From the NCBI GenBank assembly GCA_016194445.1, contig JACQBP010000035.1:4396-68395 (forward strand): a stretch of 64,000 bases of DNA, read 5' to 3'. This stretch comes from Candidatus Liptonbacteria bacterium (GTDB lineage: Bacteria > Patescibacteriota > Minisyncoccia > UBA6257 > 2-01-FULL-56-20). Below the pieces are notes generated by a model, which worked only from the letters and a program-made list of their open reading frames with translations, made no database searches and was not told the origin of the DNA. Of this stretch, positions 2,790-58,347 are shown piece by piece. Numbering within the stretch: position 1 is the first letter of the stretch; every line of letters starts with the position of its first letter. A program made the translations under genes and the position numbers.

Positions 2790-2829
2790 CCCTCGGGTGT
2801 ACAACACTGCACCCGGGGGTTTCTTTTTC
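2790..2829 (+). terminator. rho-independent terminator-like hairpin followed by a T-run
   Basis: CCCTCGGGTG...CACCCGGGGG stem followed by TTTCTTTTT directly after the stop of the 2000..2746 CDS. Confidence 0.4.
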
Positions 2830-2896
2830 CCAGGTAGTAGAAACTCGACTTTGTTTTTTTGGAAGTAAAATGCCCAGTCGAGTTTTCACTACCCGG
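2829..2896. repeat. GTAGTAGAA/TTTCACTAC hairpin element, copy 1
   Basis: CCCAGGTAGTAGAAACTCGACT ... AGTCGAGTTTTCACTACCCGG forms a 21-bp imperfect inverted repeat. The same stem with the same mismatches recurs at 40148..40208 and 43492..43550. Confidence 0.6.
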
Positions 2897-2999
2897 TGTT
2901 AATTTGACTCAACCCCTAGTTCGGGTATATTGACGGAAGCTGGAGGTTTGGGGAAGATCGACTTTGACACAGTAAAAACAGGAAGGAGGTGACCCCTAA

Positions 3000-4410: not shown

Positions 4411-4457
4411 CGTTTTATTGATTGATAATATGTTAAAAATTGATTAGAGTAAAGACA

Positions 4458-7052
4458 ATGGCGAGGGTGATTTCTATTTGTAATCAAAAAGGCGGGGTGG
4501 GGAAATGTTTGGCGCCAGGGACGCCGGTGCTTCTTTCGTCTGGAGAACTGGTGCCTATCGACAGGGTTTTTGAAAAGCACTGGGGAGATAATTTAGTGAA
4601 GAGGCTTGATAGCGACGGCGGAGTTTTTATTAAACCGAAACATGAGATCGGGGTTTTTTCTTTAGATGACGAACTTAAGATCGTTGAGGGCAAGGTGGAG
4701 GCTTTATACCGAGGAAGAGCGGAAAAGCTTCTCGAGATTAGAAGTAGTAGAGGTAAAACAGTAAAGGTAACCCCCACACACCCTTTCTTGTCGTTCAGGA
4801 ATGGTAAGCCAGGGTGGGTGTGTGCCAATGACTTGGAGGAAGGTGATTTTATTGCGGTACCCCGACAGGTCGAAGTCAGAAGTCGGAATAGCGCCGTAGA
4901 TCTGATTCCGATGGTTCCAGATGAAATTTATCTTTGGGTTAAGGACAAAGACTTTGTGGATGTTCATTTGGCCGACATTCTTTCCCGATCGAGTTTGAAT
5001 CTTGAGGATAAAATATTGTTTCAGCTCTTACAACAAGAAGAGGTGTCCGCTTCCAAACTTTATGCCACAGGAGGCAAGCCAGCTGTTTTTAAGCATCTGC
5101 GGTCGCTTTTGGCCAAAAATGTTGTAAGCCGAAGGAGGAGAGGGGAATATGTTTACTCACTCATTCGGGAAGGGGCCGTTGATTATATGTATCGGAGAGG
5201 TTTTTCGGTTCGAGTTTTTAAGGAGTGTGGTTGGGATAAAAATATGATTGCTAAGATGGGCTATCGCACTCGTTTTGGTTACACGTGTATTCCTATAAAC
5301 CCAATCTGGGAATTGGATAGAGATTTGGCGATTTTCCTCGCTATTATTTTAGCCGAAGGATATCTTGGGCCGTCGCGGATTGTGCTGTTTCATACCTCGC
5401 CTGAGATATTGGATTTTTTTAGCGCCTACTGTAGGAGGGTTGGGCTCCGATGCCAAAAAGAGTGGGTTGGTAATCAGTGGAAAGCGACGGTTAATCAAGC
5501 CGGAACCTTGATGAAGATTCTTCACGAGGTAGGGGAGGTGCCAATACGAGGCAATCGGAAATCATTTAAGGTTAAGGTTCCGGGGGTGGTGCTACGGGCA
5601 CCCAGAGAAATCTTAGCCGCTTATCTTGGCGCCTACATCGGCTGCGAGGGGTATATTGCAAAGGACAGGTCTACGGTTGAAGTGACCAGCGCTAGTTTTG
5701 AGAATATTATTGGGCTACAATATGCTTTTTTGAGATTTGGAATTAACAGTACTTTGAGGAGTGGATGGAAGTGGGCTACTAATTCTCCTGCGCCAAAGAA
5801 AAGGATGTATCACTTTCTTACCATTACCGGCTCTCATGATCTGCGGATTATTTTGGAAGGTTTGCCGATTTTGATTGAGGAAAAAGTCGAGAAACTCAAG
5901 AGGGTCTGTGAACTGAAACCAAACACTAATGTTGACGTAGTGCCAGGGGTAGGGTATTTGATAAAGTCGGTTCGGCAAAGCTTGGGGTTGCGGCAAAGAG
6001 ATGTCGGCATCCAAGGAACAATTACTGATTATGAAGATGGCAGTAATAATCCGTCAAGAACGGCGATCCAGGGAATGGTGGCCACTCTTTCGAGGAGCCC
6101 TTTGTTTTCTTATCAGGATCTCGAGGTAGAACTTTTGGATCGACTGGGATTCTCGGATGTGTTTTGGGAGCGGGTAACTTCTAAAACTTCTAGCGATTAC
6201 GATGGCTACGTTTATGATTTAACTGTTGGTAAATTCCATAATTTCATAGCTGGACAGGGTGGGTTGGTGGTGCACAATACGACGACGGCCGTTAATTTGG
6301 GGAGCTATTTGGCGGCGCTCGGTCGGCGGGTGTTACTCGTGGATTTTGACCCGCAGGCGAACGCGAGTTCGGCTTTGGGTTATGATCCTTTGCGGACGGA
6401 GCTTAGCGTTTATCACGGCATTATTAACGCCGCGCCGCACGAACACGTGATCCGGCCAACCGCCCTATTTAACTTTCATTTAGTGCCGGCGGCGCCGCAT
6501 TTGGCCGGAGCTTTAGTTGAGTTTGTGAATTTGCCGGAGCGGGAATATTTCCTTCGAAAGTTTATTAATCGCGTCAGACATAGCTACGATTATGTTTTAG
6601 TGGACTTGCCGCCGTCCTTGAGTCTGCTCACCGTGAACGGTTTGGTGGCATCGGATGAAGTTTTGGTGCCGGTGCAGGCGGAGTATTATAGCTTAGAAGG
6701 ATTGGGTCAGCTTTTGCAGACGATTGATTTGATTCGAAATAATTTGGGACACAACATTAAGGTTAGCGGCGCGGTGCTTACCATGTACAATAAGGGCGAA
6801 CGGTTGAGTCGGGAAGTGGCGACGAATTTAAGGAAAAATTTTCCGTACACTGTTTTCAACACTGAAATCCCCAGAAGTGTGGCGCTCGCGGAGGCGCCCA
6901 GTTTTTCGAAGCCGGTGATGCTTTACCGGCCGGATTCGATCGGGGCTTTAGCATATCGGAATTTGGCGGCGGAGGTTATGGCTCAAGAGAAGGAATTGAT
7001 TGCGGGGGCGATGGTAGCGAGTCAAGATTTTGGAAATTTTAATGTTATTTAG
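4458..7052 (+). CDS. soj: chromosome-partitioning ATPase ParA/Soj interrupted by an intein (possible alternative start at 4440)
   Basis: MARVISICNQKGGVGK then C...; after residues VVHN the extein resumes TTTAVNLGSYLAALGRRVLLVDFDPQANASS, a typical ParA. The Walker A motif KGGVGK|T is split by the insertion. Confidence 0.85.
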   Translation: MARVISICNQKGGVGKCLAPGTPVLLSSGELVPIDRVFEKHWGDNLVKRLDSDGGVFIKPKHEIGVFSLDDELKIVEGKVEALYRGRAEKLLEIRSSRGKTVKVTPTHPFLSFRNGKPGWVCANDLEEGDFIAVPRQVEVRSRNSAVDLIPMVPDEIYLWVKDKDFVDVHLADILSRSSLNLEDKILFQLLQQEEVSASKLYATGGKPAVFKHLRSLLAKNVVSRRRRGEYVYSLIREGAVDYMYRRGFSVRVFKECGWDKNMIAKMGYRTRFGYTCIPINPIWELDRDLAIFLAIILAEGYLGPSRIVLFHTSPEILDFFSAYCRRVGLRCQKEWVGNQWKATVNQAGTLMKILHEVGEVPIRGNRKSFKVKVPGVVLRAPREILAAYLGAYIGCEGYIAKDRSTVEVTSASFENIIGLQYAFLRFGINSTLRSGWKWATNSPAPKKRMYHFLTITGSHDLRIILEGLPILIEEKVEKLKRVCELKPNTNVDVVPGVGYLIKSVRQSLGLRQRDVGIQGTITDYEDGSNNPSRTAIQGMVATLSRSPLFSYQDLEVELLDRLGFSDVFWERVTSKTSSDYDGYVYDLTVGKFHNFIAGQGGLVVHNTTTAVNLGSYLAALGRRVLLVDFDPQANASSALGYDPLRTELSVYHGIINAAPHEHVIRPTALFNFHLVPAAPHLAGALVEFVNLPEREYFLRKFINRVRHSYDYVLVDLPPSLSLLTVNGLVASDEVLVPVQAEYYSLEGLGQLLQTIDLIRNNLGHNIKVSGAVLTMYNKGERLSREVATNLRKNFPYTVFNTEIPRSVALAEAPSFSKPVMLYRPDSIGALAYRNLAAEVMAQEKELIAGAMVASQDFGNFNVI
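4506..6278 (+). mobile_element. large intein (591 aa) with a LAGLIDADG homing-endonuclease domain inserted in the parA P-loop
   Basis: Starts with Cys (CLAPGTPVLL). Block B is VTPTHPF. LAGLIDADG-like blocks are LAIFLAIILAEGYL and LGAYIGCEGYI. Block F/G is VYDLTVGKFHNFIAG...VVHN, followed by the +1 Thr. Confidence 0.8.
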
Positions 7053-7066: not shown

Positions 7067-7094
7067 TTTTTTACTAATATACTAATAAAAAATC

Positions 7095-8228
7095 ATGCTA
7101 GGCAAAGGATTAGAATCTTTAATTCCGCCGGGGGGTGGACAGAAGCCGAATGATGGCGGATCCAGCCAGTCTCAAGATGCGGGTTTGACGGGACAGGCCC
7201 CGATACTAGAATTTCGAAAACCTGAAGGTTCGATAAGTTCGAAATTCAGTACGGGACAGGCCCAGCCCCACTTTCGAGAGAAAGATGGAGCTGGGCAAGC
7301 CCGGATAGTAGAAACTCGGAAGCCTGAAGGTTCGACGAGTTCGAAATTCAGTACGGAACAAGCCCAGCCCCACCTTGTGGATAAAAGTGGAGCTGGGCAA
7401 CCGCGCCTTCGCGAGCACGCTTCGGCGGGCGAGGCGATTTTTCAGATTGAAGTTTCAAAAATTAAACCGAATCCGCATCAACCGAGAAAAGATTTCGACG
7501 AGGAGTCAATCAAGGAACTCGCGGCGTCAATTAGCGAGGTAGGGATTTTACAGCCCTTGGTGGTCACTAAAGTTGAAAAAGAGACGCCGACGGGGACGGA
7601 TGTTGAATACATACTGATCGCTGGGGAGAGGCGGCTTTTAGCATCCAAGAGATTGGGGTTAGAGAGGGTGCCGGCTATTATTAAAAAATTGGATTTTGAA
7701 AGAGAGAGACTCGAGATGGCCATTGTCGAGAATCTCCAAAGGGAAGATCTGAACCCCATTGAAACCGCGAGGGCCTTTTCGAGACTGCAAGATGAATTCA
7801 ATTTAACCCAACGAGAAATTGCCACTCGTTTAGGCAAAAGCCGAGAGGCGGTGGCGAACACCGTCAGACTTTTAGATTTGCCGGTCTTTATACAAGAGGC
7901 GCTGGCGAGAATCCAGATCACGGAGACGCACGGAAGATTGTTACTGGCGGTGGCTGATCCGGCGGCGCAGAGGAAACTTTTTGATGATATTTTACTCAAA
8001 AGAATGACCACTCGGGAGCTCAAAGAAAGAGTCAAACCTCAAAAAGGGAACAGCGGAATTTTAACTGGGAACGATTTACCTCCCGAACTTCAGAGTTTGC
8101 AAGAAGAATTAGTCTCGAAATTAGGAGCGCCAGTGCGGATTCAGCAGCAGGGTAAAACTGGGAAAATTACGATCAGCTTCTTTTCCGAAGAAGAACTCCG
8201 AAGCATTGTCGAGAAGTTAGGCAATTAG
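7095..8228 (+). CDS. spo0J: chromosome-partitioning protein ParB/Spo0J with an N-terminal repeat insertion
   Basis: MLGKGLESLIP start; ParB box IKPNPHQPRKDFDE and GERRLLASKRLGLERVPAII; HTH region. Roughly 95 aa of tandem repeats sit between the N-terminus and the ParB-N domain. Confidence 0.85.
   Translation: MLGKGLESLIPPGGGQKPNDGGSSQSQDAGLTGQAPILEFRKPEGSISSKFSTGQAQPHFREKDGAGQARIVETRKPEGSTSSKFSTEQAQPHLVDKSGAGQPRLREHASAGEAIFQIEVSKIKPNPHQPRKDFDEESIKELAASISEVGILQPLVVTKVEKETPTGTDVEYILIAGERRLLASKRLGLERVPAIIKKLDFERERLEMAIVENLQREDLNPIETARAFSRLQDEFNLTQREIATRLGKSREAVANTVRLLDLPVFIQEALARIQITETHGRLLLAVADPAAQRKLFDDILLKRMTTRELKERVKPQKGNSGILTGNDLPPELQSLQEELVSKLGAPVRIQQQGKTGKITISFFSEEELRSIVEKLGN
7198..7261. 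repeat. MITE-like element with terminal inverted repeats (CCCCGATAC...GTACGGG), in frame within parB
   Basis: About 75-80% identical to 14215..14280. A second partial copy lies at 7300..7365, giving a tandem repeat with a period of about 120 bp. Confidence 0.6.
7300..7365. repeat. second (partial) tandem copy of the MITE-like element inside parB
   Basis: AAGCCTGAAGGTTCGACGAGTTCGAAATTCAGTACGGAACAAGCCC is near-identical to 7214..7261. Confidence 0.55.
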
Positions 8229-13956: not shown

Positions 13957-14028
13957 GCGCACATAGTTCAGTGGTAGAACGCGTTCCTGATAAGAACGAG
14001 GTCCTTGGTTCGATTCCAAGTGTGCGCA
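13957..14028 (+). tRNA. tRNA-Ile(GAT)
   Basis: GCGCACATAGTTCAGTGGTAGAACG..CTGATAA..GGTTCGATTCC..TGTGCGCA; anticodon GAT. Confidence 0.85.
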
Positions 14029-14106
14029 CCGGAAGCTGAAAGGTAGCCCCGCTGTGAGAGGGACAAAAGAATTTGTGAAGCTTAAGATTCGCTAACAAAT
14101 TCTAAC

Positions 14107-14178
14107 GCGCGGTTAGCTCAGTGGTAGAGCGCTTCGTTGACATCGAAGAGGTCAGAAGTTCGATCCTTCTACCGCGCA
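14107..14178 (+). tRNA. tRNA-Val(GAC)
   Basis: GCGCGGTTAGCTCAGTGGTAGAGCG..TTGACAT..GTTCGATCC..ACCGCGCA; anticodon GAC. Confidence 0.85.
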
Positions 14179-14214
14179 CAGTCTCCCATAAATCATATAG
14201 CATGAAACATGAAA

Positions 14215-14280
14215 CCCCGATACTAGAAGTTTGGAAAAACTTAAGTTTTAAGAAGTTCCAGACTTCAGTACGGGGCAGGC
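14215..14280. repeat. MITE-like element (CCCCGATACTAGAAG...TTCAGTACGGGGCAGGC) abutting the RBS of the rluA-family gene
   Basis: Aligns over about 66 nt with 7198..7261. Terminal inverted repeats are CCCCGATAC / GTACGGGG. Confidence 0.6.
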
Positions 14281-14292
14281 AGAAGGAGAAAT

Positions 14293-15024
14293 ATGAAAAA
14301 TAGAGAAAAGTTTGAACCGGAAGTGATTTATGAAGATCGGAATTTTTTGGCGGTGAATAAGCCGGCGGGACTTTTGGTGCATGCTAGCAATTTAAAGTTA
14401 AAAAATAAAAATGAAAAATTATTGGAGCCAACTTTGGTCAGTTGGCTTTTATATAGGTACAAAGAGATAAGTAAAGTGGGAGATGATCCAAAGGTGAGGC
14501 CGGGGATTGTGCACCGGTTGGACAAGGACACTTCTGGGGTAATGCTAATAGCGCGAAACCAAAAATACTTTGATTATCTCAAGAAACTTTTTCAAGAACA
14601 CAAAATCAGGAAAACTTATTTGGCTTTGGTTTATGGGATACCGAAAGAAAAAAAGGGAGTGATAAACAAACCTATCGCTTTAAAACCAGGTACGACGAAG
14701 CGGTCAGTTTTTGGCGGGAAGATGGAGAAGGAAGCGGTGACGGAGTACAATTTAGTAGAAGGTTTTAACGAGACAAGCGACAAGGTTTTTTCTCTATTAG
14801 AAGTGCATCCGAGAACAGGTAGGACGCATCAGATTCGAGTGCACCTCGCGAGTATTGGTTGTCCGGTTTTGAATGACCAAATTTACGCTCCGAAAAAAGA
14901 GAAAGTTGGGAGTGGAAGGTTGATGTTACACGCGCTGTCTTTGGAGTTTACGAATGAAACCGGTAAAAAGATTTTGATTGAGAGCGAATTGCCAAAGGAG
15001 TTTAGGGAAGTGACCGACAACTAA
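14293..15024 (+). CDS. RluA-family pseudouridine synthase
   Basis: Catalytic HRLDKDTSGVMLIA motif. Confidence 0.85.
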   Translation: MKNREKFEPEVIYEDRNFLAVNKPAGLLVHASNLKLKNKNEKLLEPTLVSWLLYRYKEISKVGDDPKVRPGIVHRLDKDTSGVMLIARNQKYFDYLKKLFQEHKIRKTYLALVYGIPKEKKGVINKPIALKPGTTKRSVFGGKMEKEAVTEYNLVEGFNETSDKVFSLLEVHPRTGRTHQIRVHLASIGCPVLNDQIYAPKKEKVGSGRLMLHALSLEFTNETGKKILIESELPKEFREVTDN

Positions 15025-15027
15025 CAG

Positions 15028-15049
15028 CTTATAACTTACGACAAATAAC
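15028..15049. repeat. CTTATAACTTACGACAAATAAC motif (also at 20650..20671)
   Basis: 21 of 22 nt identical to the copy downstream of the pseudopilin gene. Both lie upstream of pilin genes. Confidence 0.5.
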
Positions 15050-20021: not shown

Positions 20022-20639
20022 ATGCGGCACCTTTTTCGAGCGAGGAAAAAAAGGAGAGGTTTTACTTTGGTGGAGCTGCTCATCGTAGTGGCTTTAATGA
20101 CGATTATGACGGTGATTGTCGTGCCGAATCTGCTCTCTCGGAATATCCGCAAAGAATTTGACAGCACTGTGGACGACATCGTCGCGACTTTGAATCAAGC
20201 GAGGGATAACGCCATTACTTGGCAGAAGGGGACGGTCTGGGGGGTGTTTTTTGAGAGATACAATGTGAATAAAACCTGCGCATTTCATCAGCCACGGTTT
20301 GGTCTTTACTATACAAATGCCGGTTTTAATATTCAGGGTAATGGCGCTTTTAATGACTCAAGTAAGGTAACGCAAATTTACTATATACCCAAGTCGGTGG
20401 CTTTTAATGAGACATCGACATTTTCTGATTACGATGCAACTAAGTGTACTAACCAGAATTGTTTTTGCTTTGCGGTGATGCCGTTTAAAGAAATTACAGG
20501 CAGTTGGTGGAATCAACCCGCTGTGCCGCCAGCAACAACCACGGTTACACTTTATCTTCCAAAAAGCCCACAAGTTTCATCAACCATCACCATTTCGCCA
20601 AATGGGTTTATCAGTTACACCACTTCTTCGGCGCAATAA
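20022..20639 (+). CDS. prepilin-type (pseudopilin) protein
   Basis: RG|FTLVELLIVVALMTIM class III signal. Confidence 0.7.
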   Translation: MRHLFRARKKRRGFTLVELLIVVALMTIMTVIVVPNLLSRNIRKEFDSTVDDIVATLNQARDNAITWQKGTVWGVFFERYNVNKTCAFHQPRFGLYYTNAGFNIQGNGAFNDSSKVTQIYYIPKSVAFNETSTFSDYDATKCTNQNCFCFAVMPFKEITGSWWNQPAVPPATTTVTLYLPKSPQVSSTITISPNGFISYTTSSAQ

Positions 20640-20649
20640 CGACTAATGA

Positions 20650-20690
20650 CTTATAACTTACGACTAATAACTTATGACCAATAACTTATT
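20650..20690. repeat. CTTATAACTTACGACTAATAAC plus degenerate tandem TTATGACCAATAAC repeats
   Basis: Matches 15028..15049 and is followed by roughly 14-bp periodic AATAAC repeats. Confidence 0.5.
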
Positions 20691-38011: not shown

Positions 38012-38383
38012 TTATTTAAAAAGTTTGTGTAATTTTCTGTTTAGTGAACCATCAAGTTCGCGCTCGTCGTCGAAAGTGATTCTGACGCCCGCCACGAGAG
38101 ATGGATTCAGCGAAGTTTCAATCCAGTCTTTACGGGAAAATTTTTTGGTGATGGATTTGATTTGGGCTTCACTGGCTTCACGGGCAAATTCGATTTTGAT
38201 TTGCGAACCGCCGTTTTTTTTGATCTCGATTTTTTTGAAAGCCTCAAGAATTTTGGGGAAACTTTTTTGATCGCCATTTTTCTTGACCAATTTCAAGAAG
38301 TTCGAGATCAGAGGCTTTTCATCTTTAGCTTTTTCTAGAGATTTTGCGAGAGCTAAAGCATAATTTTTAGGGGAGTATTTCAT
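38012..38383 (-). CDS. atpH: ATP synthase delta (OSCP) subunit, short
   Basis: Sits between atpF and atpA; 123 aa, shorter than the usual delta subunit. Confidence 0.55.
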   Translation of the reverse strand: MKYSPKNYALALAKSLEKAKDEKPLISNFLKLVKKNGDQKSFPKILEAFKKIEIKKNGGSQIKIEFAREASEAQIKSITKKFSRKDWIETSLNPSLVAGVRITFDDERELDGSLNRKLHKLFK

Positions 38384-38883
38384 GCTTTTTCTTTGATGAC
38401 TTCGGCAGCGCGACTAATTAACTTGTCGTCGATGTATTTTGGATCGAGTTCGACCATCTTCACAATCGCTTCCTTGATTAAAGCGTTAGCTTTTTCAAAA
38501 AGTCGATCTAATTCCTCTTGTTTTTTGTGTTCCGCGATCCGAGCCGCTTCGGCGAGAGTGCCGTCCGCTTTTTCTTCGGCCACTTTTATAATTTCGTCGA
38601 AGCGTTTTTGACCCTTTTTTTCCGCTTCGCTGATTAATTTTAACGCGTTTTTATCGGCTTCGGTCATTTTTTCTTCTTTCAGTTGGTCAATTTCTTTTAG
38701 TCGCCGTTCGGCTTCTTCGGCGCCGACGAGGCCAAACTCGATCTTTTTGCGGCGCTCTTCCATGACTTTGGCGAGAGGTCGGTAAACCAGGAGCGTGAGG
38801 ACGATGAGTAGGATCAAGAAATTTGCCCCTTGAGATAATAGGAGTTTCCAGTTAATGCCTAGTTGATGAACTAATTCTTGCAT
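38380..38883 (-). CDS. atpF: ATP synthase B subunit
   Basis: N-terminal TM followed by a long charged helix. Confidence 0.75.
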   Translation of the reverse strand: MQELVHQLGINWKLLLSQGANFLILLIVLTLLVYRPLAKVMEERRKKIEFGLVGAEEAERRLKEIDQLKEEKMTEADKNALKLISEAEKKGQKRFDEIIKVAEEKADGTLAEAARIAEHKKQEELDRLFEKANALIKEAIVKMVELDPKYIDDKLISRAAEVIKEKA

Positions 38884-38945
38884 GCCGATTTTGTCTGAAT
38901 TTTAGAGCCGTCTTGAGGTGAATAAAATTCAGCCACAAAAACGAG

Positions 38946-39049
38946 CACCCCGCCCCACTTTTTACAAAGCGGGTTTTTCGACTTAATATTTTTTAAATCT
39001 AGTTTGAACATTTTTTTATACCGTGCCCTTATAAAAAGTGGGGCGGGGT
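38946..39049. repeat. perfect 18-bp inverted repeat (ACCCCGCCCCACTTTTTA / TAAAAAGTGGGGCGGGGT) between atpE and atpF
   Basis: The arms at 38947..38964 and 39032..39049 are exact reverse complements, separated by 67 nt. Confidence 0.8.
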
Positions 39050-39103
39050 ATAGGTTTTGTCAACAAAATTTTTTCGCATTCGCTCTAAATTTTGTACAAA
39101 GCC

Positions 39104-39331
39104 CTATACGAACTTTAAGATTAAAGAAACGACCAACGCGTAAATGGCGATGGCTTCGGCGAAGGCGATCGCTAAGATCATCGCCGTCTGAACTTTCGGA
39201 GCGGCTTCCGGATTGCGGCCGATAGCGTCGGCGCCTTTGGATCCGATCAGGCCGATAGCGATGGCGGGACAAATAGTACCGACCGCCATAACGATAGCGA
39301 TGGCTAATAACTTCATTGATTCTGCGTCCAT
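39104..39331 (-). CDS. atpE: ATP synthase C subunit
   Basis: Two TM helices; GRNPE loop; conserved carboxylate in FAEAIAIYAL. Confidence 0.9.
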   Translation of the reverse strand: MDAESMKLLAIAIVMAVGTICPAIAIGLIGSKGADAIGRNPEAAPKVQTAMILAIAFAEAIAIYALVVSLILKFV

Positions 39332-40116: not shown

Positions 40117-40147
40117 GGAAGTTTAGACTATTTGGGTTTAATACGGG

Positions 40148-40208
40148 CCCAGATAGTAGAAGTTCAGAACGCTAAAGCATATTGAAAAATCTGAACTTCA
40201 CTACCGGG
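40148..40208. repeat. GTAGTAGAA/TTCACTAC hairpin element, copy 2 (upstream of the atp operon)
   Basis: CCCAGATAGTAGAAGTTCAG ... CTGAACTTCACTACCGGG. Confidence 0.5.
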
Positions 40209-40340
40209 AGGGCGTTATTTTAGCAGATTAATGCTGTTTTGAGAAGAGGGAAAAAACGGCTCAAGGACGAAGCTCCTCGCGCCGTTACCGTGACCGCTCT
40301 CCCTCCTGGTCCAGGGGGCTCAAATTAATTATATCTCGAT

Positions 40341-43305: not shown

Positions 43306-43491
43306 TTTTTCCTCCTTGTCGAGTTATGAGTTAAACTTAGCTGGCTTTAAGGTAACATAGTTTTGGTAATTATTACAAGCGAGCCCTCGCGGCCTCTAAC
43401 AGGATTGACAAATTCTATACCTTTGGTATGATCGTTCAACACTATCAGACCAAGAGGCATAGTCGAGTTTCTAGGTAAAAACCAGGTAGTA

Positions 43492-43550
43492 GAACTTCGG
43501 CGTGTCGCTTTTCGCGACTGCGTTTAATCGGCCGAAGTTTCACTACCTGG
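43492..43550 (+). promoter_or_regulatory. long imperfect hairpin in the cspA 5' leader (GTAGTAGAA/TTTCACTAC element, copy 3)
   Basis: CCAGGTAGTAGAACTTCGGC ... GCCGAAGTTTCACTACCTGG, 14 nt upstream of the csp ATG. Confidence 0.55.
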
Positions 43551-43563
43551 AAAAAATAATCAA

Positions 43564-50011: not shown

Positions 50012-50159
50012 AAGAAATCACTTTTTCTTGAAATCAAAAAGTTGCTTGGTAAAGCAAAAGATTTTTTGATTTCAACCCGATACTTTCTCATTTCTTTAAT
50101 AACGCCTTACAAAATCATCTCTTGAAAAACTAATTTAATCTGTTAAGCTAGATTGGCAT

Positions 50160-50429
50160 TCCCCGGTAGCTCAGTGGTAGAGCGGATCCCTGTCGGATAG
50201 GCAGCCTACAAGAGTAATCTTGTTTGAAAATTTCGGGATAACGGTGAACCCTTCGATACGCTTTGGCATATAAAGGTAACACCGTGGGAACCTCGCAATT
50301 TGCGGGGGCACCGTAGAGACTAGATACCGAAACATCCCAGTTGGGATGATGATATAGTCCGCGCCCTTTGGAAACTTTGGGATAAGTGTAAGGATAAGGT
50401 CGTAGGTTCGAATCCTACCCGGGGAGCCA
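50160..50429 (+). tRNA. tRNA gene interrupted by a group I intron; most likely tRNA-Asn(GUU)
   Basis: 5' exon (50160..50193) is TCCCCGGTAGCTCAGTGGTAGAGCGGATCCCTGT. 3' exon (50389..50426, plus CCA) is TAAGGATAAGGTCGTAGGTTCGAATCCTACCCGGGGAG+CCA. Joining them gives the anticodon loop CUGUUAA. U1:A72 and G73 match bacterial tRNA-Asn. Confidence 0.75.
50194..50388 (+). ncRNA. group I self-splicing intron (about 195 nt, small IC3-like) in the tRNA anticodon loop
   Basis: Conserved core elements are present: P-like AATTTGCGGG, R-like GTAGAGACTAGA and S-like GATATAGTCC. The 5' exon ends in U and the intron ends in G. A possible P1 pairs exon CUGU with intron GCAG. Confidence 0.7.
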
Positions 50430-52016
50430 GATGGGATGAGTGTCGCGAAAAGCGGCACTTTTCTCTTTATTGGTGGGCTTTTTCGCAGGTTCGAAAGTGC
50501 TTTTTTCGGTGTTTTTCTCGGAAAGCTCTTGTTGAACTCGATCATGTATGAGTTTAAAGGCTTTTTGGTAAGAAACCTCGACATTCTTGCCGTTTATCTT
50601 GGGGTTCGAAAATAGAAATGACAGCAGGGTTCGTTTTTGCTCAACCGTTCGCCGGGGTTTTAGATAAGTGTCGCGGGCCTCTTTTGCTATTTGAAGCACG
50701 GCCACACCCATCTCAAAATATTTGAGATTCGCGTTGCGATGGCGGTTTAAGCTGTCCAGCGTTTCTTCTTGCTCTTTTTTGTATTGCTGGAGTTTTTTGT
50801 CATAAAAATCGTGGCTGATTCGGCCGTCGATTTTATCGTCATAAAGTTTATCTATTCTCTGGGTGGCCGTCTGATATCTTCGTTCAAGTTCGGCCGATGA
50901 TTTTTCACGGAAGGCGATCTCGCCGGCATGGCTTTCTTTGAGTGCCTCTTGGACCCACGAGAGCATCCGTTCAATGCGTTTATCTTCGTGGCTTACTTCA
51001 ACCACCGATTTGGCCACTTGAGTATTGATATCTTCTTGCTTTACCCAATCATAATTCGGGCAGTTTTTGTAATGATTGCAGTGGCCGTACCAATGGCCTT
51101 TTTGTATTTCCCAAGTAATCGTTCCTCCGCATTCACTGCATCGGAATACGCTTTTAAACAGCGAATTGTGCTTTCGCATCCTCGGAGCTCCGTAACTGTG
51201 CAATCTATCCTGCACTTTTTGAAAAAGTTCTTTACTGATAAGCGGTTCGTGGTGACCCGGGGTGATCTGATTTTTCCATCGGTTCATGCCGTAGTAGAAC
51301 GGATCACCGAGAAGCTGATGGATTCGGGCATGGCTTACTTTGTGACTGGTACGCGAGCGCAGGCCTTTTTCATACATCGCATTGCAGAGTGTCTTGGTTG
51401 AGTATTGGCCGGATGCATATAATTCAAACATCTTTTTAATGAGTGGTGATTTTTCCTCGTCAATCACATGAACTTTATGTCCCTTCTCGCCGTCGGTTTT
51501 ATATCCGAGCGGAGGCTTTGTCGGCAACCATCCCTGCGCCAGTTTTTCTTTTTGCCCCTTTTTTACATTTTCAGAGAGCAGTCGGATATAGTATTCGGCT
51601 GTTGCCACTTTTACTCGCCACATAAACCACTCGTGCGATTTTGATTCTTTGTGCAGGGTGCATCCTTCTTTGACCAGATGAATTTTATGATTATCATCGG
51701 CCAGTATCCAATTATCAATAACCGGTACATCGGCGAAGTTTCTGGTGAGCCGGTCGGTGGTCTCTACGATGATGGTGTTGATTTTGTTTTTTACCACATG
51801 CGCCATCATCTCGCCGAAGATTTTTCGCTGGATTTTGCCGGCGGCCGACTCTTGGATGGCAAAAACTTTCGTGAGCTCGAAGTTATTGCGTTCGGCATAG
51901 TCGCGAAGGAATTTTTCTTGGGCCGGTAGTGAATAGCCGGTATCCTCTTGATCTTTTGAGGACACGCGGGCGTATCCCACGGTCTTTGGCATTTCGTTAT
52001 TGTTTATCATTGTCAT
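50415..52016 (-). CDS. large serine recombinase (integrase)
   Basis: N-terminal resolvase catalytic domain with VGYARVSSKDQ; recombinase domain; zinc ribbon CSECGG...HCNHY. The 3' end overlaps the tRNA 3' end by 15 nt. Confidence 0.85.
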   Translation of the reverse strand: MTMINNNEMPKTVGYARVSSKDQEDTGYSLPAQEKFLRDYAERNNFELTKVFAIQESAAGKIQRKIFGEMMAHVVKNKINTIIVETTDRLTRNFADVPVIDNWILADDNHKIHLVKEGCTLHKESKSHEWFMWRVKVATAEYYIRLLSENVKKGQKEKLAQGWLPTKPPLGYKTDGEKGHKVHVIDEEKSPLIKKMFELYASGQYSTKTLCNAMYEKGLRSRTSHKVSHARIHQLLGDPFYYGMNRWKNQITPGHHEPLISKELFQKVQDRLHSYGAPRMRKHNSLFKSVFRCSECGGTITWEIQKGHWYGHCNHYKNCPNYDWVKQEDINTQVAKSVVEVSHEDKRIERMLSWVQEALKESHAGEIAFREKSSAELERRYQTATQRIDKLYDDKIDGRISHDFYDKKLQQYKKEQEETLDSLNRHRNANLKYFEMGVAVLQIAKEARDTYLKPRRTVEQKRTLLSFLFSNPKINGKNVEVSYQKAFKLIHDRVQQELSEKNTEKSTFEPAKKPTNKEKSAAFRDTHPIWLPG

Positions 52017-52109
52017 TTTTGGTTAATTTTTTGGTTCGAAATCGACCTTTGGTCTCAAGACAACCCCTATGCCAATTCTCGATATCCATCAAGCTGATTT
52101 GCCCACAGC

Positions 52110-52646
52110 TCAAACACCGGTGTCTATCCAGTCAAAAAGTCGGTTTTCCGCATCTTCTGGATATTCTTTTCGAGCCAGCTTGAGCCGTACTTCGTAAGGG
52201 ACGAGATACCACCTTTCCATTGATGTCATTTTTGAGAGCGCTTCTTTGCTTAAATTCATTTCTTCTTTGGGCCTGCCTTCGACGCGATCCAGAAGCTCTT
52301 TTATGGCGCCGAGCTTCACATTGTCTTGCTGGCTTCCCATTAAAGCTACGAGCATTTCGTTGGCAAGCCGGAAGTTCTTCTCGCGAATTTGAACGCCGGC
52401 CTTGAGAAGCATCTGCATCGTTTCCCCGTGGATTGTATCCATTTCTTTCTCGTAAAGCTTGTATGTCTCGCAGAGCGTTCCCGTGTCTTTAAACCAATCT
52501 TTTGCTGTTTGCTCGGAAAACTTGCCTTTTCTACTTTTTTCAAACTGGGAATTCAAAGTTTCGGCAATGTCTTGGTAGGAATTGCCTTTATATTTCAGCT
52601 CTAACGCTTTCTTGTGGTATTCGGCTAAATGTTTGAGTTTCGGCAT
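52110..52646 (-). CDS. hypothetical HTH protein (element-encoded)
   Basis: GNSYQDIAETLN helix-turn-helix-like segment. Confidence 0.35.
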   Translation of the reverse strand: MPKLKHLAEYHKKALELKYKGNSYQDIAETLNSQFEKSRKGKFSEQTAKDWFKDTGTLCETYKLYEKEMDTIHGETMQMLLKAGVQIREKNFRLANEMLVALMGSQQDNVKLGAIKELLDRVEGRPKEEMNLSKEALSKMTSMERWYLVPYEVRLKLARKEYPEDAENRLFDWIDTGV

Positions 52647-52657
52647 GAAAAGTTGTG

Positions 52658-52855
52658 TTAAGTAGAGTGTTTGGCTGATTCATGGCGAATAGGTTGGACC
52701 GGCTTCCCCAGCACATACTCAATAATAATTATTGCCGCTTGAAGCCGTATTGATTCGTCTTTGCTTTCCAAAAGCGAAACCAGCACTTTTGTCGCTTTCA
52801 CTACATTTTTTCGTAGTATTTCTATCGCGATTTCTTCTGGCTTTTTATTTTTCAT
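52658..52855 (-). CDS. small hypothetical protein
   Basis: 65 aa, overlaps the next gene by 4 nt. Confidence 0.25.
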   Translation of the reverse strand: MKNKKPEEIAIEILRKNVVKATKVLVSLLESKDESIRLQAAIIIIEYVLGKPVQPIRHESAKHST

Positions 52856-53346
52856 GGTTTTGGCGTCATTGATTTTATTAATGTCTCGCGACCTCTTGCG
52901 AGCGCATCCAATGATTCCTGGTCTTTTTCTTGGGCGTATTGACGGCGGTATTTTAGATCATCGAGCGCGCGTTTCTTTTGGCAAAATTCTTCGTATGCCT
53001 TAAGGCCTGGGCCTACCGCCCAGCTCCAGCCCGGGTGTTCTGGCTTAACCCAGCGACGAGATATCGCTTTATTTCGAAGCAGATATTGGACGATACCGGC
53101 ATCGGTTAGGCCGGTAACATCGTTGCGAACTCGACGCGTGTCTTGGCTTTCGGGGAATTCTCGCTTGCCGATCTTAAAGGCGTTTATAACCGGCACCGTC
53201 TCTCCGTAGAAGCTCATTGGTCTTTCCAGCGGTTCTTTTTTCAGTTGCTCAAGCTCGGCCTCAAATTCTCGAATAGCTTTTCGATCTTCTTCGATATCCA
53301 AGTCGTACCCGACTTTTATTGGTTTTTGTTCTTCATTTAATTTCAT
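52852..53346 (-). CDS. hypothetical protein
   Basis: Charged helical protein; no recognisable motif. Confidence 0.35.
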   Translation of the reverse strand: MKLNEEQKPIKVGYDLDIEEDRKAIREFEAELEQLKKEPLERPMSFYGETVPVINAFKIGKREFPESQDTRRVRNDVTGLTDAGIVQYLLRNKAISRRWVKPEHPGWSWAVGPGLKAYEEFCQKKRALDDLKYRRQYAQEKDQESLDALARGRETLIKSMTPKP

Positions 53347-53349
53347 GGC

Positions 53350-54117
53350 TTAGACAATAAATTTAAGAAGTGTCTCAAGGCTATATTTCTTGAGCCATCC
53401 TTCTTTGACCGCTTCTTGCATCCGCTTATAGCCTTGCTTCAACCGCTCGTCCTCAAACGGCATAAGGTTTTTAGCGGCTCGCAGATTTCTTCGGATAAAA
53501 GTTTCCCATTGCCTTTTAGTGGTGAAATCAGGCTCCTCGGTATCCGCCCAAATTCCGATAATCTGAATATGGCGTTGCGGACTTTGATTGCACCACTCAA
53601 CGAATTCTTTTAAATCCATAGGCATATCCGCATTCACCGAAGGTGTTGCAATATCTTCTTTATTAATTTTCTTTATTGATTCTTCTTTGTTGCCATCCAT
53701 TGGCTTTTCTAAAATCACCGGATGACTTTTCATAACGCACCCAGTGCCTTTTCTATGAGAAAAATCATCTGGTGACTTTTCTTTTTTGGCATAGTATTTG
53801 GCGTTCAGTTGCCATAAATCGACGATCTTGTACTCAATGGTCGGCTTAGTTTTGCCGGCAACGCCGACTTTTTCTATCCAACCTCTTTGCACTAAAGTTT
53901 TCTGATACTTTCTGACGGTACCCGGAGCGATATCGAGTTTCTTTGCGATATTAATCGGCGACTCCCAGCAGGTGCCGGTCTCGCCGGCAACGCGCTTCAT
54001 GTAAAGATAAATTGCCTGCTCGTAGACGGTTGAATGGTTCACGATATAGTTCGGAATGATCGTGAAATATTTGCGGTCACCGCTTTTATCTATGATTTTG
54101 AAGGGATCACTTTTCAT
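53350..54117 (-). CDS. winged-helix DNA-binding protein (replication or regulatory function, element-encoded)
   Basis: wHTH-like segment PGTVRKYQKTLVQRGWIEK. Confidence 0.35.
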   Translation of the reverse strand: MKSDPFKIIDKSGDRKYFTIIPNYIVNHSTVYEQAIYLYMKRVAGETGTCWESPINIAKKLDIAPGTVRKYQKTLVQRGWIEKVGVAGKTKPTIEYKIVDLWQLNAKYYAKKEKSPDDFSHRKGTGCVMKSHPVILEKPMDGNKEESIKKINKEDIATPSVNADMPMDLKEFVEWCNQSPQRHIQIIGIWADTEEPDFTTKRQWETFIRRNLRAAKNLMPFEDERLKQGYKRMQEAVKEGWLKKYSLETLLKFIV

Positions 54118-54288
54118 GGCTTTGTTGTTCGGCGATTAAATCCTCGCAGTAGCACTGCATCAGCGTGTCGTAAAAGCCCACGAGACAAAATGCGATGTCG
54201 TGCAAATCCTGATCATTGACCTCTTCGCCAAAATCTTCTTTGAGAATGACGCGGAGCTTCTCCAGCGTTTCTGGTTTTAAGTTCACGG

Positions 54289-54549
54289 CTATTCGTGGGC
54301 ATAAATCCTGACTTTGGCGAGTTTAAGCTGGTTGAAAAATGCTTGCGGCTCGACCTTGAGTTCGCGCTTCCAATACTTGGCGACAAGCTCATCCAGCTCG
54401 TCGCTTTTCTTGAACGCGAATAGGACTTTATGCGGGTTTGTCCGATCGCAGACCTCGAGCGAATCGGGAATAAATAATAAAAGCACCGCCACCAACGCTA
54501 AATCGGCGGATTTATAAACTTCGGTTTGTTCAGTTGTTTTCATCGTCAT
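54289..54549 (-). CDS. small hypothetical protein
   Basis: 86-aa ORF. Confidence 0.3.
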   Translation of the reverse strand: MTMKTTEQTEVYKSADLALVAVLLLFIPDSLEVCDRTNPHKVLFAFKKSDELDELVAKYWKRELKVEPQAFFNQLKLAKVRIYAHE

Positions 54550-54651
54550 TATTCGCTAAACCGATGTTCCGTTTCGGGGCCTCACCCAAAACAAAACACA
54601 CTCCCATGTTAAGGGAGTGCATTCATTCAATTTTCAGTTATGAATTGATTT

Positions 54652-55353
54652 TTAGGGCTTAAAATACCATCCTTCCTGCTTTTGATTGAAAATTACATCT
54701 TTTTTGAAATGAAGTTTTAATAGGTTGTGGAGCTCGCTTACATACTTTGCGATTGTAATTCTGGGCGTGGATTTTCTTCTGTCCGCATTGATAATCGCGT
54801 CTTGTATGTCATCTCTTGTGAGCATCCGATTCGGGTGATCCATAAAAAGTCGGCATAAATCTTTTATCTGACTTCGCATTTCAATCATTTCGCCTTGATA
54901 TCGGATCGTTCCATCGGAATAGCCGGCAAGGCCTTTTATTTCAATCTCTGGCTTCAAATCTTGAACATACAGCAAGTCCTTTTTGTGCCGGCGCGTAGGA
55001 GCTGTACTGAAGATTTCCTCATCAGATTTCTTGGGTGGCGCAACCAGATCCATCAATTTTTGCCGTTCCTTATACAAAAGCATCTTTATCGGTCTAATCA
55101 AATAAAAACAATCTTGATCCTCTTCAAAATTGCCAATAATTTTCTTCTTTTTGAGGTCTTTAAGCCACCGTCTCTGTTCGTCCCAAGAGTGGAGCGGAAA
55201 AGGGTTGAGCCAGACCTTTTTTCGTTTAGAGTAAAATTCGGGATCATCCTCGCCGGCCACTTCAACTCTTTTGATAACCTCGTTGATAAAATCAATTTTT
55301 CTTTGGGCCTCCCGCCTGATTTTTACTACATCATCATTAATAGTCATTGTCAT
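54652..55353 (-). CDS. hypothetical protein
   Basis: 233 aa; the C-terminal part may be winged-helix-like. Confidence 0.35.
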   Translation of the reverse strand: MTMTINDDVVKIRREAQRKIDFINEVIKRVEVAGEDDPEFYSKRKKVWLNPFPLHSWDEQRRWLKDLKKKKIIGNFEEDQDCFYLIRPIKMLLYKERQKLMDLVAPPKKSDEEIFSTAPTRRHKKDLLYVQDLKPEIEIKGLAGYSDGTIRYQGEMIEMRSQIKDLCRLFMDHPNRMLTRDDIQDAIINADRRKSTPRITIAKYVSELHNLLKLHFKKDVIFNQKQEGWYFKP

Positions 55354-55440
55354 AGTGTTAAATCCATTGTGTCAGATTTTGCCACTTTTGAAAATAAATA
55401 CGAGCGGACGGTAACAGTTTCAATGAGCTAAAGCGACGGA

Positions 55441-56070
55441 TTGTCGGAAAAAGAAATAAGTGATATGGTAAAAAATATTTCCATAGCTTCTATGCCCAAA
55501 CCACAACTTACCTACAATCCCAATTATTATGACGGAACAAACCTCATGCAGCTGAGACCGCGCGAGGTTGCTTTCAAAACATATAAAATGCGCGACGGTA
55601 CTCTGATAGGCTTATTTCAGGGAAGTCGTGGAGTGCGACCAGACATTGATTTCGTTATAAAAATTCTTATTCCCGGATCCGATAAAAAATTAAGACCACC
55701 AACTCACACCTTTTGGGTTGTGGATCTATTACTTAAAATCCCGCAATACAAGAACGAGGTGAAAGAAATTGTGCAATATTATATAGATTATTACGAACGG
55801 ACGGTTCCTTTTGCTTCTGTTCAGGAAAGAAATAATTACCAGCTTGAAACCGTTGAGGAAATTACAACTCGTTATGCGCAACTGGAGCAACCATATACAC
55901 TTTCACTCGATTATGTCGCGACGGTCATTGAACTTTTTTGTAAGAACGAGAAAATCAACCCCGGCGCATATATGTTCCGAAATCTCTTGCTCGTGTTGAG
56001 AGATTATATTGACGGCAATAAGCACTATACAGAAGTGCTTCAGGCCGCAATGCCTGGCTACAGAAATTAG
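55441..56070 (+). CDS. hypothetical protein
   Basis: 209 aa; no recognisable motif. Confidence 0.35.
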   Translation: MSEKEISDMVKNISIASMPKPQLTYNPNYYDGTNLMQLRPREVAFKTYKMRDGTLIGLFQGSRGVRPDIDFVIKILIPGSDKKLRPPTHTFWVVDLLLKIPQYKNEVKEIVQYYIDYYERTVPFASVQERNNYQLETVEEITTRYAQLEQPYTLSLDYVATVIELFCKNEKINPGAYMFRNLLLVLRDYIDGNKHYTEVLQAAMPGYRN

Positions 56071-56711
56071 CTTGCTGTCTCAAAAATCTTTTTTACTAGC
56101 CCTGTGCGAGCATAGAATGCCCGAGTAATAGGGCGACGCTTTCCAGTTCGCGGATTAATACCACCAATGCCTTTTGTGCGAGCCTGTATCCACTTGCCGT
56201 CTTTCCCGGTTAAGGCATCAAAACCCTTCTTAATCAGTTTGTCGCGGATAAAATCGTAGTCGGCCTTGATTTCTTTTATCAATTCACCGTCCTCGGCGAA
56301 ATCCAAGCTTGCCACGCTCAGCAACTCCGCTTTCTTGGAATTCATGCCATTCCATTTTACGGCACAAAAAATAATAGTTTTAAATTTTGCCCAAACATGA
56401 CTTTCAAAAAACGAATGATCCTTTAATTCTTCGGGGTGGACCATTGTTATCGCCATCGTTTCTTTTGGTACGAGTTTATTGTTCACATAATGAAAGGCGA
56501 CGGATTTGAGTTCGTAAGTAAGCCCATTCGGTGCTTTTGAGACATTTGTTTGTAGCCCCGCCAACCGTTCTAAGACAAGACCCTTCCAGCCTTTATTTTG
56601 CTTTCCATTCTTAAACGAATTGATACCGAATTGCAAAGCAAGATCGGCAAGGTCTCTACCAATATATTTCTTCAGATTTTTTATCGCAGTTGCCCGAGTT
56701 ACAATTTTCAT
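56067..56711 (-). CDS. MutH/Sau3AI-family GATC endonuclease (restriction subunit)
   Basis: Similar to MutH. NKGWKGLVLERLAG aligns with MutH DKGWIGVLLEIWLG, TYELKSVAF with GVELKTIPV, and the C-terminal ITRAFYARTGLVKKIF with RGFYLKKNF. Translationally coupled (ATGA) to the upstream methyltransferase. Confidence 0.75.
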   Translation of the reverse strand: MKIVTRATAIKNLKKYIGRDLADLALQFGINSFKNGKQNKGWKGLVLERLAGLQTNVSKAPNGLTYELKSVAFHYVNNKLVPKETMAITMVHPEELKDHSFFESHVWAKFKTIIFCAVKWNGMNSKKAELLSVASLDFAEDGELIKEIKADYDFIRDKLIKKGFDALTGKDGKWIQARTKGIGGINPRTGKRRPITRAFYARTGLVKKIFETAS

Positions 56712-58177: not shown

Positions 58178-58276
58178 AAACGATTGACTCGGTGTATTTA
58201 TTTTCTTACACTATCAGTATACCGAAGATTTGCCGAAGATGTAATAGCCCACTTATCCACATGCAGAGAAATAGCA

Positions 58277-58294
58277 AACAAGTCGACAAACTTG
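58277..58294. promoter_or_regulatory. ACAAGT-N6-ACTTGT palindrome (with central GTCGAC) in the divergent promoter region; candidate operator
   Basis: Only strong palindrome in the 170-bp region between the LexA-methyltransferase start and the 1205-aa gene start. Confidence 0.35.
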
Positions 58295-58347
58295 TCTATA
58301 AACTCTACGGCCTCACTTCGGAGGAGTTAAGATTGTAGAACAAAACC

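Follow-up and report, generated by a model that had tools for sequence, protein, structure and literature searches.

The parB gene of a Candidatus Liptonbacteria bacterium carries, in frame, a repeated block built from a palindromic unit, and this raises the question of what the unit is and how a partition gene came to tolerate it. We analysed a 64,000-nucleotide (nt) stretch of this genome (GenBank assembly GCA_016194445.1, contig JACQBP010000035.1, positions 4,396 to 68,395 of the forward strand), hereafter the window, in which parB occupies positions 7095-8228 of the plus strand. A first-pass annotation had described the unit as an element similar to a miniature inverted-repeat transposable element (MITE). 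Our analysis indicates that this unit of about 60 nt is probably a palindromic mobile repeat resembling the repetitive extragenic palindromic (REP) sequences of Proteobacteria and the Rickettsia palindromic elements (RPEs), tolerated in frame in the hypervariable linker of ParB.

The open reading frame (ORF) that hosts the insertion encodes 377 amino acids (aa), and its product is 100% identical to a protein named ParB/RepB/Spo0J from a metagenome-assembled genome (MAG) of Candidatus Liptonbacteria (70-kb contig). Its precomputed domains are PF02195, PF17762 and PF23552 (ParB_N, HTH_ParB and ParB_C), and it shows the N-terminal LG(K/R)GL peptide and the invariant motifs of the ParB/Spo0J family in an alignment of 40 sequences. 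The insert lies between the N-terminal peptide MLGKGLESLIP and the folded ParB domain. It contains a tandem duplication at 7197-7400 (plus strand) of 2 x 102 nt, or 2 x 34 codons, corresponding to ParB residues ~33-100. Tandem Repeats Finder gave a period of 102 nt, 2.0 copies and 84% matches, and a second repeat search delimited the units as 7191-7292 and 7293-7394, with 81% identity. Each 102-nt unit is made of an imperfect palindrome of ~60 nt and a separate 37-nt hairpin. The palindrome has the general form CCCNGATASTAGAA-stem-loop-TTCASTACN'GGG and reads CCCCGATACTAGAA-TTTCGAAAACCTGAAGGTTCGATAAGTTCGAAA-TTCAGTACGGG at 7198-7256, with a diverged twin at 7300-7358. Two palindromic repeats with the ends CCCCGATACTAGAA...TTCAGTACGGG are therefore present at the places where they had first been noticed. 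The earlier description of a ~65-nt unit repeated in tandem holds for the number of copies and fails for the period, which is 102 nt and includes the second hairpin that had not been separated. The block had also been credited with adding about 95 aa; the repeated part amounts to 68 aa (2 x 34), in a whole linker of ~100 aa.

The two copies of the element within parB differ in condition. The first (c1, 7194-7262, plus strand) comprises the core at 7198-7256 and an ACAGGCC tail, retains an intact hairpin (RNA fold of -25.1 kcal/mol, z = -4.6 against shuffles) and is translated as GQAPILEFRKPEGSISSKFSTGQA; it scores 82.2 and 73.6 bits with two covariance models, R1 and R2, built from five and 52 copies, respectively. 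The second (c2, 7296-7364, plus strand), translated as GQARIVETRKPEGSTSSKFSTEQA, has a decayed or chimeric hairpin, with 70 bits (R1) and 48.8 bits (R2) and a fold no better than shuffles (z = 0.16). Its 5' arm is identical over the initial 22 nt (7300-7321, CCCGGATAGTAGAAACTCGGAA) to copy E1 in the relative L079, and its 3' part matches c1; c2 may be a chimera or a product of gene conversion rather than a plain diverged duplicate. The second hairpin of the unit, GCCCAGCCCCAC..GGAGCTGGGC, is found at 7258-7298 (B1, plus strand; -25.5 kcal/mol, z = -6.2) and, as its duplicate, at 7360-7400 (B2, plus strand; -21.6 kcal/mol, z = -3.75). It is followed by a linker module (C, 7395-7439, plus strand, GQPRLREHASAGEA) whose structure is not significant (z = -0.5). 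Module C is present in ParBs P0002 and P0024 and absent from P0047; its DNA is 87% identical to that of loci L001-L004, and a 60-nt indel separates L001 from L005 at this place. Neither hairpin B nor module C was retained as a dispersed repeat: blastn-short searches, against the window and about 90 loci for the former and against the window and all loci for the latter, matched only parB. Because the two 102-nt units are only 81-84% identical, their duplication is not an assembly artefact. They differ at 19 of 102 nt, with nine of the 34 codons showing non-synonymous and five synonymous changes, and hence at nine of 34 residues in the peptide repeats; the duplication is therefore old and has been drifting as peptide.

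The element is not confined to parB. Loose searches with its two arms yielded the first further candidates (the 16-nt 3' arm alone has three matches in the window, for 0.63 expected), and R1 and R2, run unfiltered on the 64 kb, agree on exactly six copies, all on the plus strand, with E-values from 1e-6 to 1e-18. A third copy had been reported directly upstream of the rluA-family gene, and it is real: c3 (14211-14281, plus strand; core 14215-14275, tail to 14281) lies between tRNA-Val (14107-14179) and rluA, and ends 11 nt before the ATG of this PseudoU_synth_2 gene, which is preceded by GGAG and starts at 14293. It scores 74.5 (R1) and 67.2 bits (R2), and folds at -31.3 kcal/mol (z = -7.3). 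Three copies come in addition to those noted earlier. Copy c4 (40144-40214, plus strand; 79.8 bits with R1, 69.3 with R2) is located 27 nt upstream of the start of the minus-strand atpB and is antisense to its neighbours, atpB and bacA being the genes identified locally. Copy c5 (2825-2898, plus strand; 49 bits with R1, 43 with R2; fold z = -6.8) is intergenic and stands just after a terminator-like GC hairpin and T run. Copy c6 (43478-43552, plus strand; 24.1 bits with R1, 33.3 bits and E = 8e-7 with R2) ends 11 nt short of the ATG of a gene for a cold-shock protein (CSD domain). Beyond 43.6 kb, the window holds no copy of the hairpin element.

To follow the family across genomes, we scanned one genome per species (185,579 species) with the pattern GATASTAGAAN{25,55}TTCASTACNGG, and obtained 81 loci, of which about 45 were validated by covariance model. 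The validated loci belong to MAGs labelled Paceibacterota, Wolfe-, Nealson-, Moran-, Doudna- and Yanofskybacteria, Kazan and 'Patescibacteria group', as well as to bins labelled 'Saccharibacteria' or 'bacterium', whose ParB is ~75-78% identical to that of the window in the conserved domain. The only validated loci outside Patescibacteria-type MAGs are on two short contigs from bins assigned to Gammaproteobacteria and Methylomirabilis; none of the pattern matches from other phyla, and none of the eight from viral contigs, passed the covariance model. The family is patchy, with copies in five of 50 parB loci retrieved from metagenomes by the ParB core domain alone (367 kb, including L087). A protein search with the 73-aa translated repeat returned no match at E <= 10 among 5.8 billion sequences, a result that is uninformative because such short, biased peptides cannot reach significance against a database of that size. 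Rfam recognises three tRNAs only in the window, and permissive filters applied to 14000-14400 gave nothing above noise and no score reaching a gathering threshold; the literature searched contained no paper linking Patescibacteria, which also go by the name candidate phyla radiation (CPR), to REP, MITE or palindromic elements. By these two sources, no earlier description of the repeat family seems to exist.

The six copies of the window share an outer stem in which CCCN-G(A)TAST(A)GAA pairs with TTC-AS'TA-C-N'GGG and the 5' arm has two bulged bases; the inner stem is variable yet paired, and the loop is variable. The element measures 59-80 nt, with a bare core of 58-59 nt, and in many copies it is followed by a CAGGC(C) tail, the core and 5 nt of tail making 63 nt, or 21 codons. 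In an alignment of 52 copies, which was fitted to the model and for which the pattern had fixed most outer-arm bases, 95.7% of the cells are in standard pairs (81.6% in shuffles), 11 of the 18 stem pairs have changes on both sides, and 128 cells are doubly changed (35 in shuffles, with 0 of 500 shuffles reaching 128). Sliding the partner by one to three columns lowered pairing to 31-47%, and S/S' and N/N' are complementary although the search pattern left them unconstrained. The stem is thus maintained by compensatory change. Top-strand mismatches of the G-U type number 11 and those of the A-C type 18; there is no G-U excess, and therefore no evidence that top-strand RNA alone matters.

Comparison of orthologous sites argues for mobility. 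Nearly all copies lie outside long ORFs, and the 21-kb segment of the relative that encodes ParB P0005, syntenic with the window over ~1-18 kb (from parA to the pilin genes), has no copy, for four in the window. In locus L005, a copy immediately follows the parB stop and is absent from the close relative L001; removing exactly 59 nt (CCCC...GGG) from L005 restores colinearity and raises the alignment score from 132 to 191, the junction showing no duplication. Three copies follow parB in L079/L090, and one of them, 64 nt long, is nested in the apical loop of another. Once the nested copy is taken out of L079, the remaining element is identical to c1 at 53 of 60 positions, again with no target-site duplication. 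L093 shows the same nesting in a decayed form, together with a triplicated GATAGTAG, and neighbouring copies in tail-to-head or inverted arrangement occur in L060, L079, L012, L019 and L034.

These insertions also bear on the initial comparison with MITEs, which stands in so far as the repeat is dispersed, small, palindromic and apparently mobile. A MITE in the strict sense would be a deletion derivative of a DDE-type insertion sequence (IS), whose transposase binds two terminal inverted repeats and creates target-site duplications. The element is indeed small (59-80 nt), non-coding (stops in two of three top-strand frames) and multi-copy (six copies in 64 kb and about 45 elsewhere), with the inverted termini CCCCGATAC/GTACGGGG. 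However, a search for flanking direct repeats at all offsets and lengths found that at best eight of the 52 copies share a 3-mer, so that the target-site duplication sought after the first-pass annotation is absent from these copies, as it is from the filled and empty sites of L005 and L001; both the precise 59-nt insertion and the nested copy occurred without one. Moreover, the entire element forms one helix with a covarying inner stem instead of two protein-bound termini, and no IS or transposase recurs among the four genes around each of ~57 copies. A classical MITE is thus very unlikely. On anatomical grounds, a CRISPR repeat, an integron attC site and a DNA-uptake sequence were also rejected, as the array has just two tandem units, a GTTRRRY box is lacking and arms do not occur singly outside hairpins.

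With respect to flanking genes, copies are found in all orientations: same/same in 21 cases, opposite/opposite in 13, convergent in nine and divergent in four. Their orientation follows the G-rich strand in six of six cases in the window, in 38 of 51 elsewhere and in 29 of 32 where |skew| >= 0.1, and the GC skew of the window stays positive across blocks of minus-strand genes. IS608-type elements use a single-strand mechanism on the lagging-strand template. The orientation of the copies would suit a mechanism of this kind, the bias being partly confounded with gene strand.

Both the conserved stem and the position of the copies could alternatively reflect a structured motif with a host function, kept by selection as RNA (a stabiliser of mRNA 5' or 3' ends, or a processing or terminator-like hairpin) or as a protein-binding DNA cruciform, with the parB copies accidental or exapted. 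Compensatory changes do preserve the stem, the same outer stem extends across distant Patescibacteria lineages, and copies are frequently found right beside start or stop codons (11 nt before an ATG for c3 and c6, and 0-25 nt from a stop for many others). In addition, a T-rich run directly follows about ten copies, and apical loops are often of the UUCG or UACG type. The complements of these loops, GCGAAGC and GCGTAGC, are very stable DNA mini-hairpins, and the loops do not therefore single out RNA. Such a motif would fit poorly with the mixed orientations (21/13/9/4), the lack of G-U excess (11 vs 18), the unconserved loops and the absence of any Rfam match. It would fit no better with relatives devoid of copies at orthologous sites, with the presence of any copy in only five of 50 unbiased parB loci, or with nested and clustered copies. 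We consider a host-functional motif unlikely.

Returning to the mobile repeat as the preferred reading, the next question is why ParB accepts it. Across 120 Patescibacteria ParBs, the segment from MLGKGLESLIP to (I/V)FQIE..KPNPHQPR resists alignment and varies in length from about 20 to 180 aa. AlphaFold2, using the 40-sequence alignment, gives residues 12-110 a predicted local distance difference test score (pLDDT) of ~40-50 and no secondary structure, followed by a confident fold over residues 112-377 (pLDDT >86); the insert region is thus predicted to be disordered. Because the linker is hypervariable in length and predicted to be disordered, insertions there are expected to be harmless, and this one looks neutral for ParB. 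It had been called unusual for an essential gene, which is overstated: as selfish-DNA insertions go, this in-frame one in the linker is tolerated and rather ordinary. Of the three frames of the element's top strand, a single one is open, the others meeting TAG in CTAGAA or TGA in the loop, and a tolerated sense insertion must therefore read GQAP-ILEFRKPEG..SKFSTGQA. Every module of the window's ParB linker ends in G-Q/E-A. The codons for G-Q-A (GGGCAGGCG) just before (I/V)FQIE are conserved in the parB linkers of L087, L090, L094, L095, L099 and the window, and GQA(P) recurs within many Patescibacteria ParB linkers. The native GGGCAGGCG resembles the 3' terminus and tail of the element (GGGGCAGGC).

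Translated copies also occur in relatives, within the parB linker of L001-L005 as in the window (7194-7364), and as C-terminal fusions in L079, L092 and L093. In the latter three, the parB frame runs into an element at its 3' end (L079 2480-2720, equivalent to L090 6534-6693; L092 1223-1297; L093 1010-1150), which supplies the last six to nine codons and the stop. The proteins consequently end in ..RLNPDSRNSE*, ..RLNPDTKTSTR* and ..RLNPDARI*, respectively, and that of the window in ..EKLGN*. L129 has a variant copy located 55 nt upstream of the ATG of parB. Overall, the parB-linker copies and the few 3'-terminal fusions represent roughly 5% of ~60 copies. In L057, a copy at 7074-7142 (minus strand) ends directly at the ATG of a gene whose product is hydrophobic in its N-terminal segment; if translation started at an in-frame ATG further upstream, this copy would read GQALILEFRRPKDQKGSKFSTGQA, in the same frame as the ParB copies.

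This association with parB could suggest that the repeats of ParB form a peptide module, functional or ancestral, serving ParA contact or spacing, or that the hairpins form a centromere-like site with ParB. Copies do lie in or beside parB in the window linker, the L001-L005 linker, the 3' ends of L005, L079, L092 and L093, and the 5' untranslated region of L129. Furthermore, no canonical parS (TGTTNCACGTGAAACA) was found in the 64-kb window at up to two mismatches, nor within about 6 kb of parB in the fetched Patescibacteria loci (L001-L005, L087-L138) at up to one mismatch; the sole match in the fetched loci is in L166, which is not from Patescibacteria. These ParBs may use a centromere site that is distant or departs from the canonical sequence. 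The enrichment at parB is, however, suggestive only in the biased set of loci: in the unbiased one, 45 of 50 parB loci have no copy, and parB accounts for about two of four independent events, a share that is not significant. The peptide repeats diverge freely and are predicted to be disordered, intergenic copies contain stops in the frame used by ParB, and the element has no part that looks like a 16-bp ParB-type palindrome. An ancestral N-terminal domain, the outcome that would have overturned the initial interpretation, is further contradicted by the nearest ParBs by conserved domain (P0002, P0003, P0005, P0011 and P0013; ~78% identity), none of which carries a copy. A peptide module or a centromere function is, on this evidence, highly improbable.

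Several observations weigh against a mobile repeat inserted in frame, and concern its history, its mobilisation and the way in which the family was collected. Firstly, P0024 and P0047, whose ParBs share 64% core identity with that of the window, have one copy, decayed (32-38 bits) and in the same frame. The smallest neighbour-joining clade uniting these two with the window ParB has 34 members, and the other 31 are without a recognisable copy; a single old insertion followed by losses and independent insertions of one subfamily are not separable. The frame shared by the three inserts is forced and their shared inner stem is a subfamily consensus, so that neither tells orthologous inserts from independent ones. 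Under both histories the parB insert is inserted DNA and not a conserved ParB domain. Secondly, the 58-59-nt core is not a multiple of three, and the original in-frame event needed the tail (63 nt) or an accompanying indel. Thirdly, an all-against-all blastp of flanking ORFs, covering four genes around each of ~57 copies, revealed no recurrent transposase or other mobilising gene. The recurrent families are all housekeeping (EF-Tu, S10, ParA/ParB/RelA/TopA, IleRS and RluA). Among 20 window proteins scanned there is no transposase family and one serine recombinase, in an unrelated island, and the fetched loci of 8-21 kb contain no recurrent candidate for a RAYT, the Y1/HUH transposase associated with REPs. 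Finally, the outer-stem sequence is identical in lineages as distant as Kazan, Doudna-, Moran-, Yanofsky-, Wolfe- and Nealsonbacteria, which a host-function motif would also explain; most copies from outside the window were found with a pattern fixing the outer arms, and the conservation of those bases is partly by construction.

The scenario that we consider most probable starts from a family of small, non-coding, hairpin-forming repeats spreading within Patescibacteria genomes. New copies would be added as the bare hairpin, without target-site duplication, mostly between genes and sometimes beside or inside another copy. The copying intermediate would be a folded single strand handled by some enzyme, of the HUH/Y1 type or other. 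One copy would have landed in its stop-free frame within the DNA for the disordered linker that follows the ParB N-terminal peptide, a peptide taken to contact ParA, and would have been translated as a neutral spacer, presumably devoid of function. The 102-nt block, comprising the element and the neighbouring hairpin, would later have been duplicated in tandem and have diverged. As a more speculative variant, to which we grant limited but real credence, the hairpin could be the recognition site of a conserved Patescibacteria enzyme acting on folded single-strand DNA or RNA, that is, a new type of phylum-wide REP/RAYT-like or processing system. Through mimicry of the element end GGGGCAGGC by the native GGGCAGGCG, the parB linker might then receive copies repeatedly, and arrays would grow there by tail-to-head insertion.

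Among known systems, REPs and the bacterial interspersed mosaic elements (BIMEs) that they form are the closest in organisation. Like them, the element is a short imperfect palindrome, repeated, mostly extragenic and near gene ends, found singly or in tandem or inverted clusters, without target-site duplication and with a stem held by compensatory change. It differs from those of Proteobacteria in its length (about 60-75 nt vs 20-40 nt), in its confinement to Patescibacteria, and in the translation of some copies, and no RAYT/Y1 gene was found in the 8-21 kb loci. It also lacks a conserved GTAG flanking its 5' side, where sequences are not conserved; GTAG is found only inside the 5' arm of GATAGTAGAA-type copies, the others having CTAG, as in the GATACTAGAA of c1 and c3. 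RPEs are palindromic repeats of a bacterium with a reduced genome that are tolerated in frame in protein-coding genes as an extra peptide (PMC10969869). The present element likewise sits in frame in an ORF and is translated, an analogy of behaviour only: RPEs are ~100-150 bp long, about half of them lie within ORFs, compared with roughly 5% here, and they belong to another phylum. Intragenic copies of ERIC, BOX and other small repeats, and in-frame fusions by small repeats, have also been described (PMC10969869). MITEs and the ERIC/IRU, Correia, BOX, RUP and SPRITE repeats resemble the element as small, non-autonomous sequences with inverted ends, sometimes intragenic or at terminators, but it has no target-site duplication, no identifiable parent IS and a single hairpin. 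The ends of IS200/IS605 and the PATEs share with it hairpins with extrahelical bases, insertion without duplication and an orientation tied to the G-rich (lagging-strand-template) strand. In contrast to these, no TnpA or TnpB was found near copies, there is no conserved 5' target tetranucleotide, and the orientation bias is confounded with gene strand.

Patescibacteria genomes are regarded as streamlined and repeat-poor. A covarying palindromic repeat common to many of their lineages, gained or lost at orthologous sites, able to nest within itself and to rewrite the ParB C-terminus or pad its linker, would serve to follow genome dynamics in an uncultivated group and as a handle for finding its mobilising enzyme. 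It would also be a source of assembly and annotation artefacts, such as odd low-complexity peptides and shifted stop codons. After Rickettsia, it would represent the second clear case of palindromic selfish DNA translated in housekeeping proteins of reduced genomes. Real interest attaches to the factor by which the conserved bulged stem is recognised throughout the phylum.

Other features of the window deserve mention. The neighbouring parA (4440-7052, plus strand; 870 aa) contains an intein with a LAGLIDADG homing endonuclease that splits the Walker A motif (KGGVGK|C...HN|TTTA), and the ParA of relatives, 273-293 aa long, is without intein; both partition genes of this genome thus carry selfish insertions. 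The region ~50100-64000, where GC falls to ~0.41, looks like an integrated element. It encodes a large serine recombinase (50415-52016, minus strand) beside a partial tRNA-like repeat (50167-50192), helix-turn-helix proteins and, at 56708-58177, a fusion of LexA-S24 peptidase and DNA methylase; one of its ORFs, of 1205 aa, has no Pfam match. Near 44-48 kb, the sign of the GC skew changes. In the gap between two ORFs of the ATP synthase operon (38380-38883 and 39104-39331, minus strand), a perfect inverted repeat of 18 nt (ACCCCGCCCCACTTTTTA / TAAAAAGTGGGGCGGGGT) occupies 38945-39050; its arms are separated by about 55 nt, and it bears no relation to the element family. Finally, AT-rich tandem repeats of 7/14 nt (ACTTATGACTAATA-like) are found at 15017-15049, directly after the rluA stop, and at 20639-20689, after a pilin-like gene.

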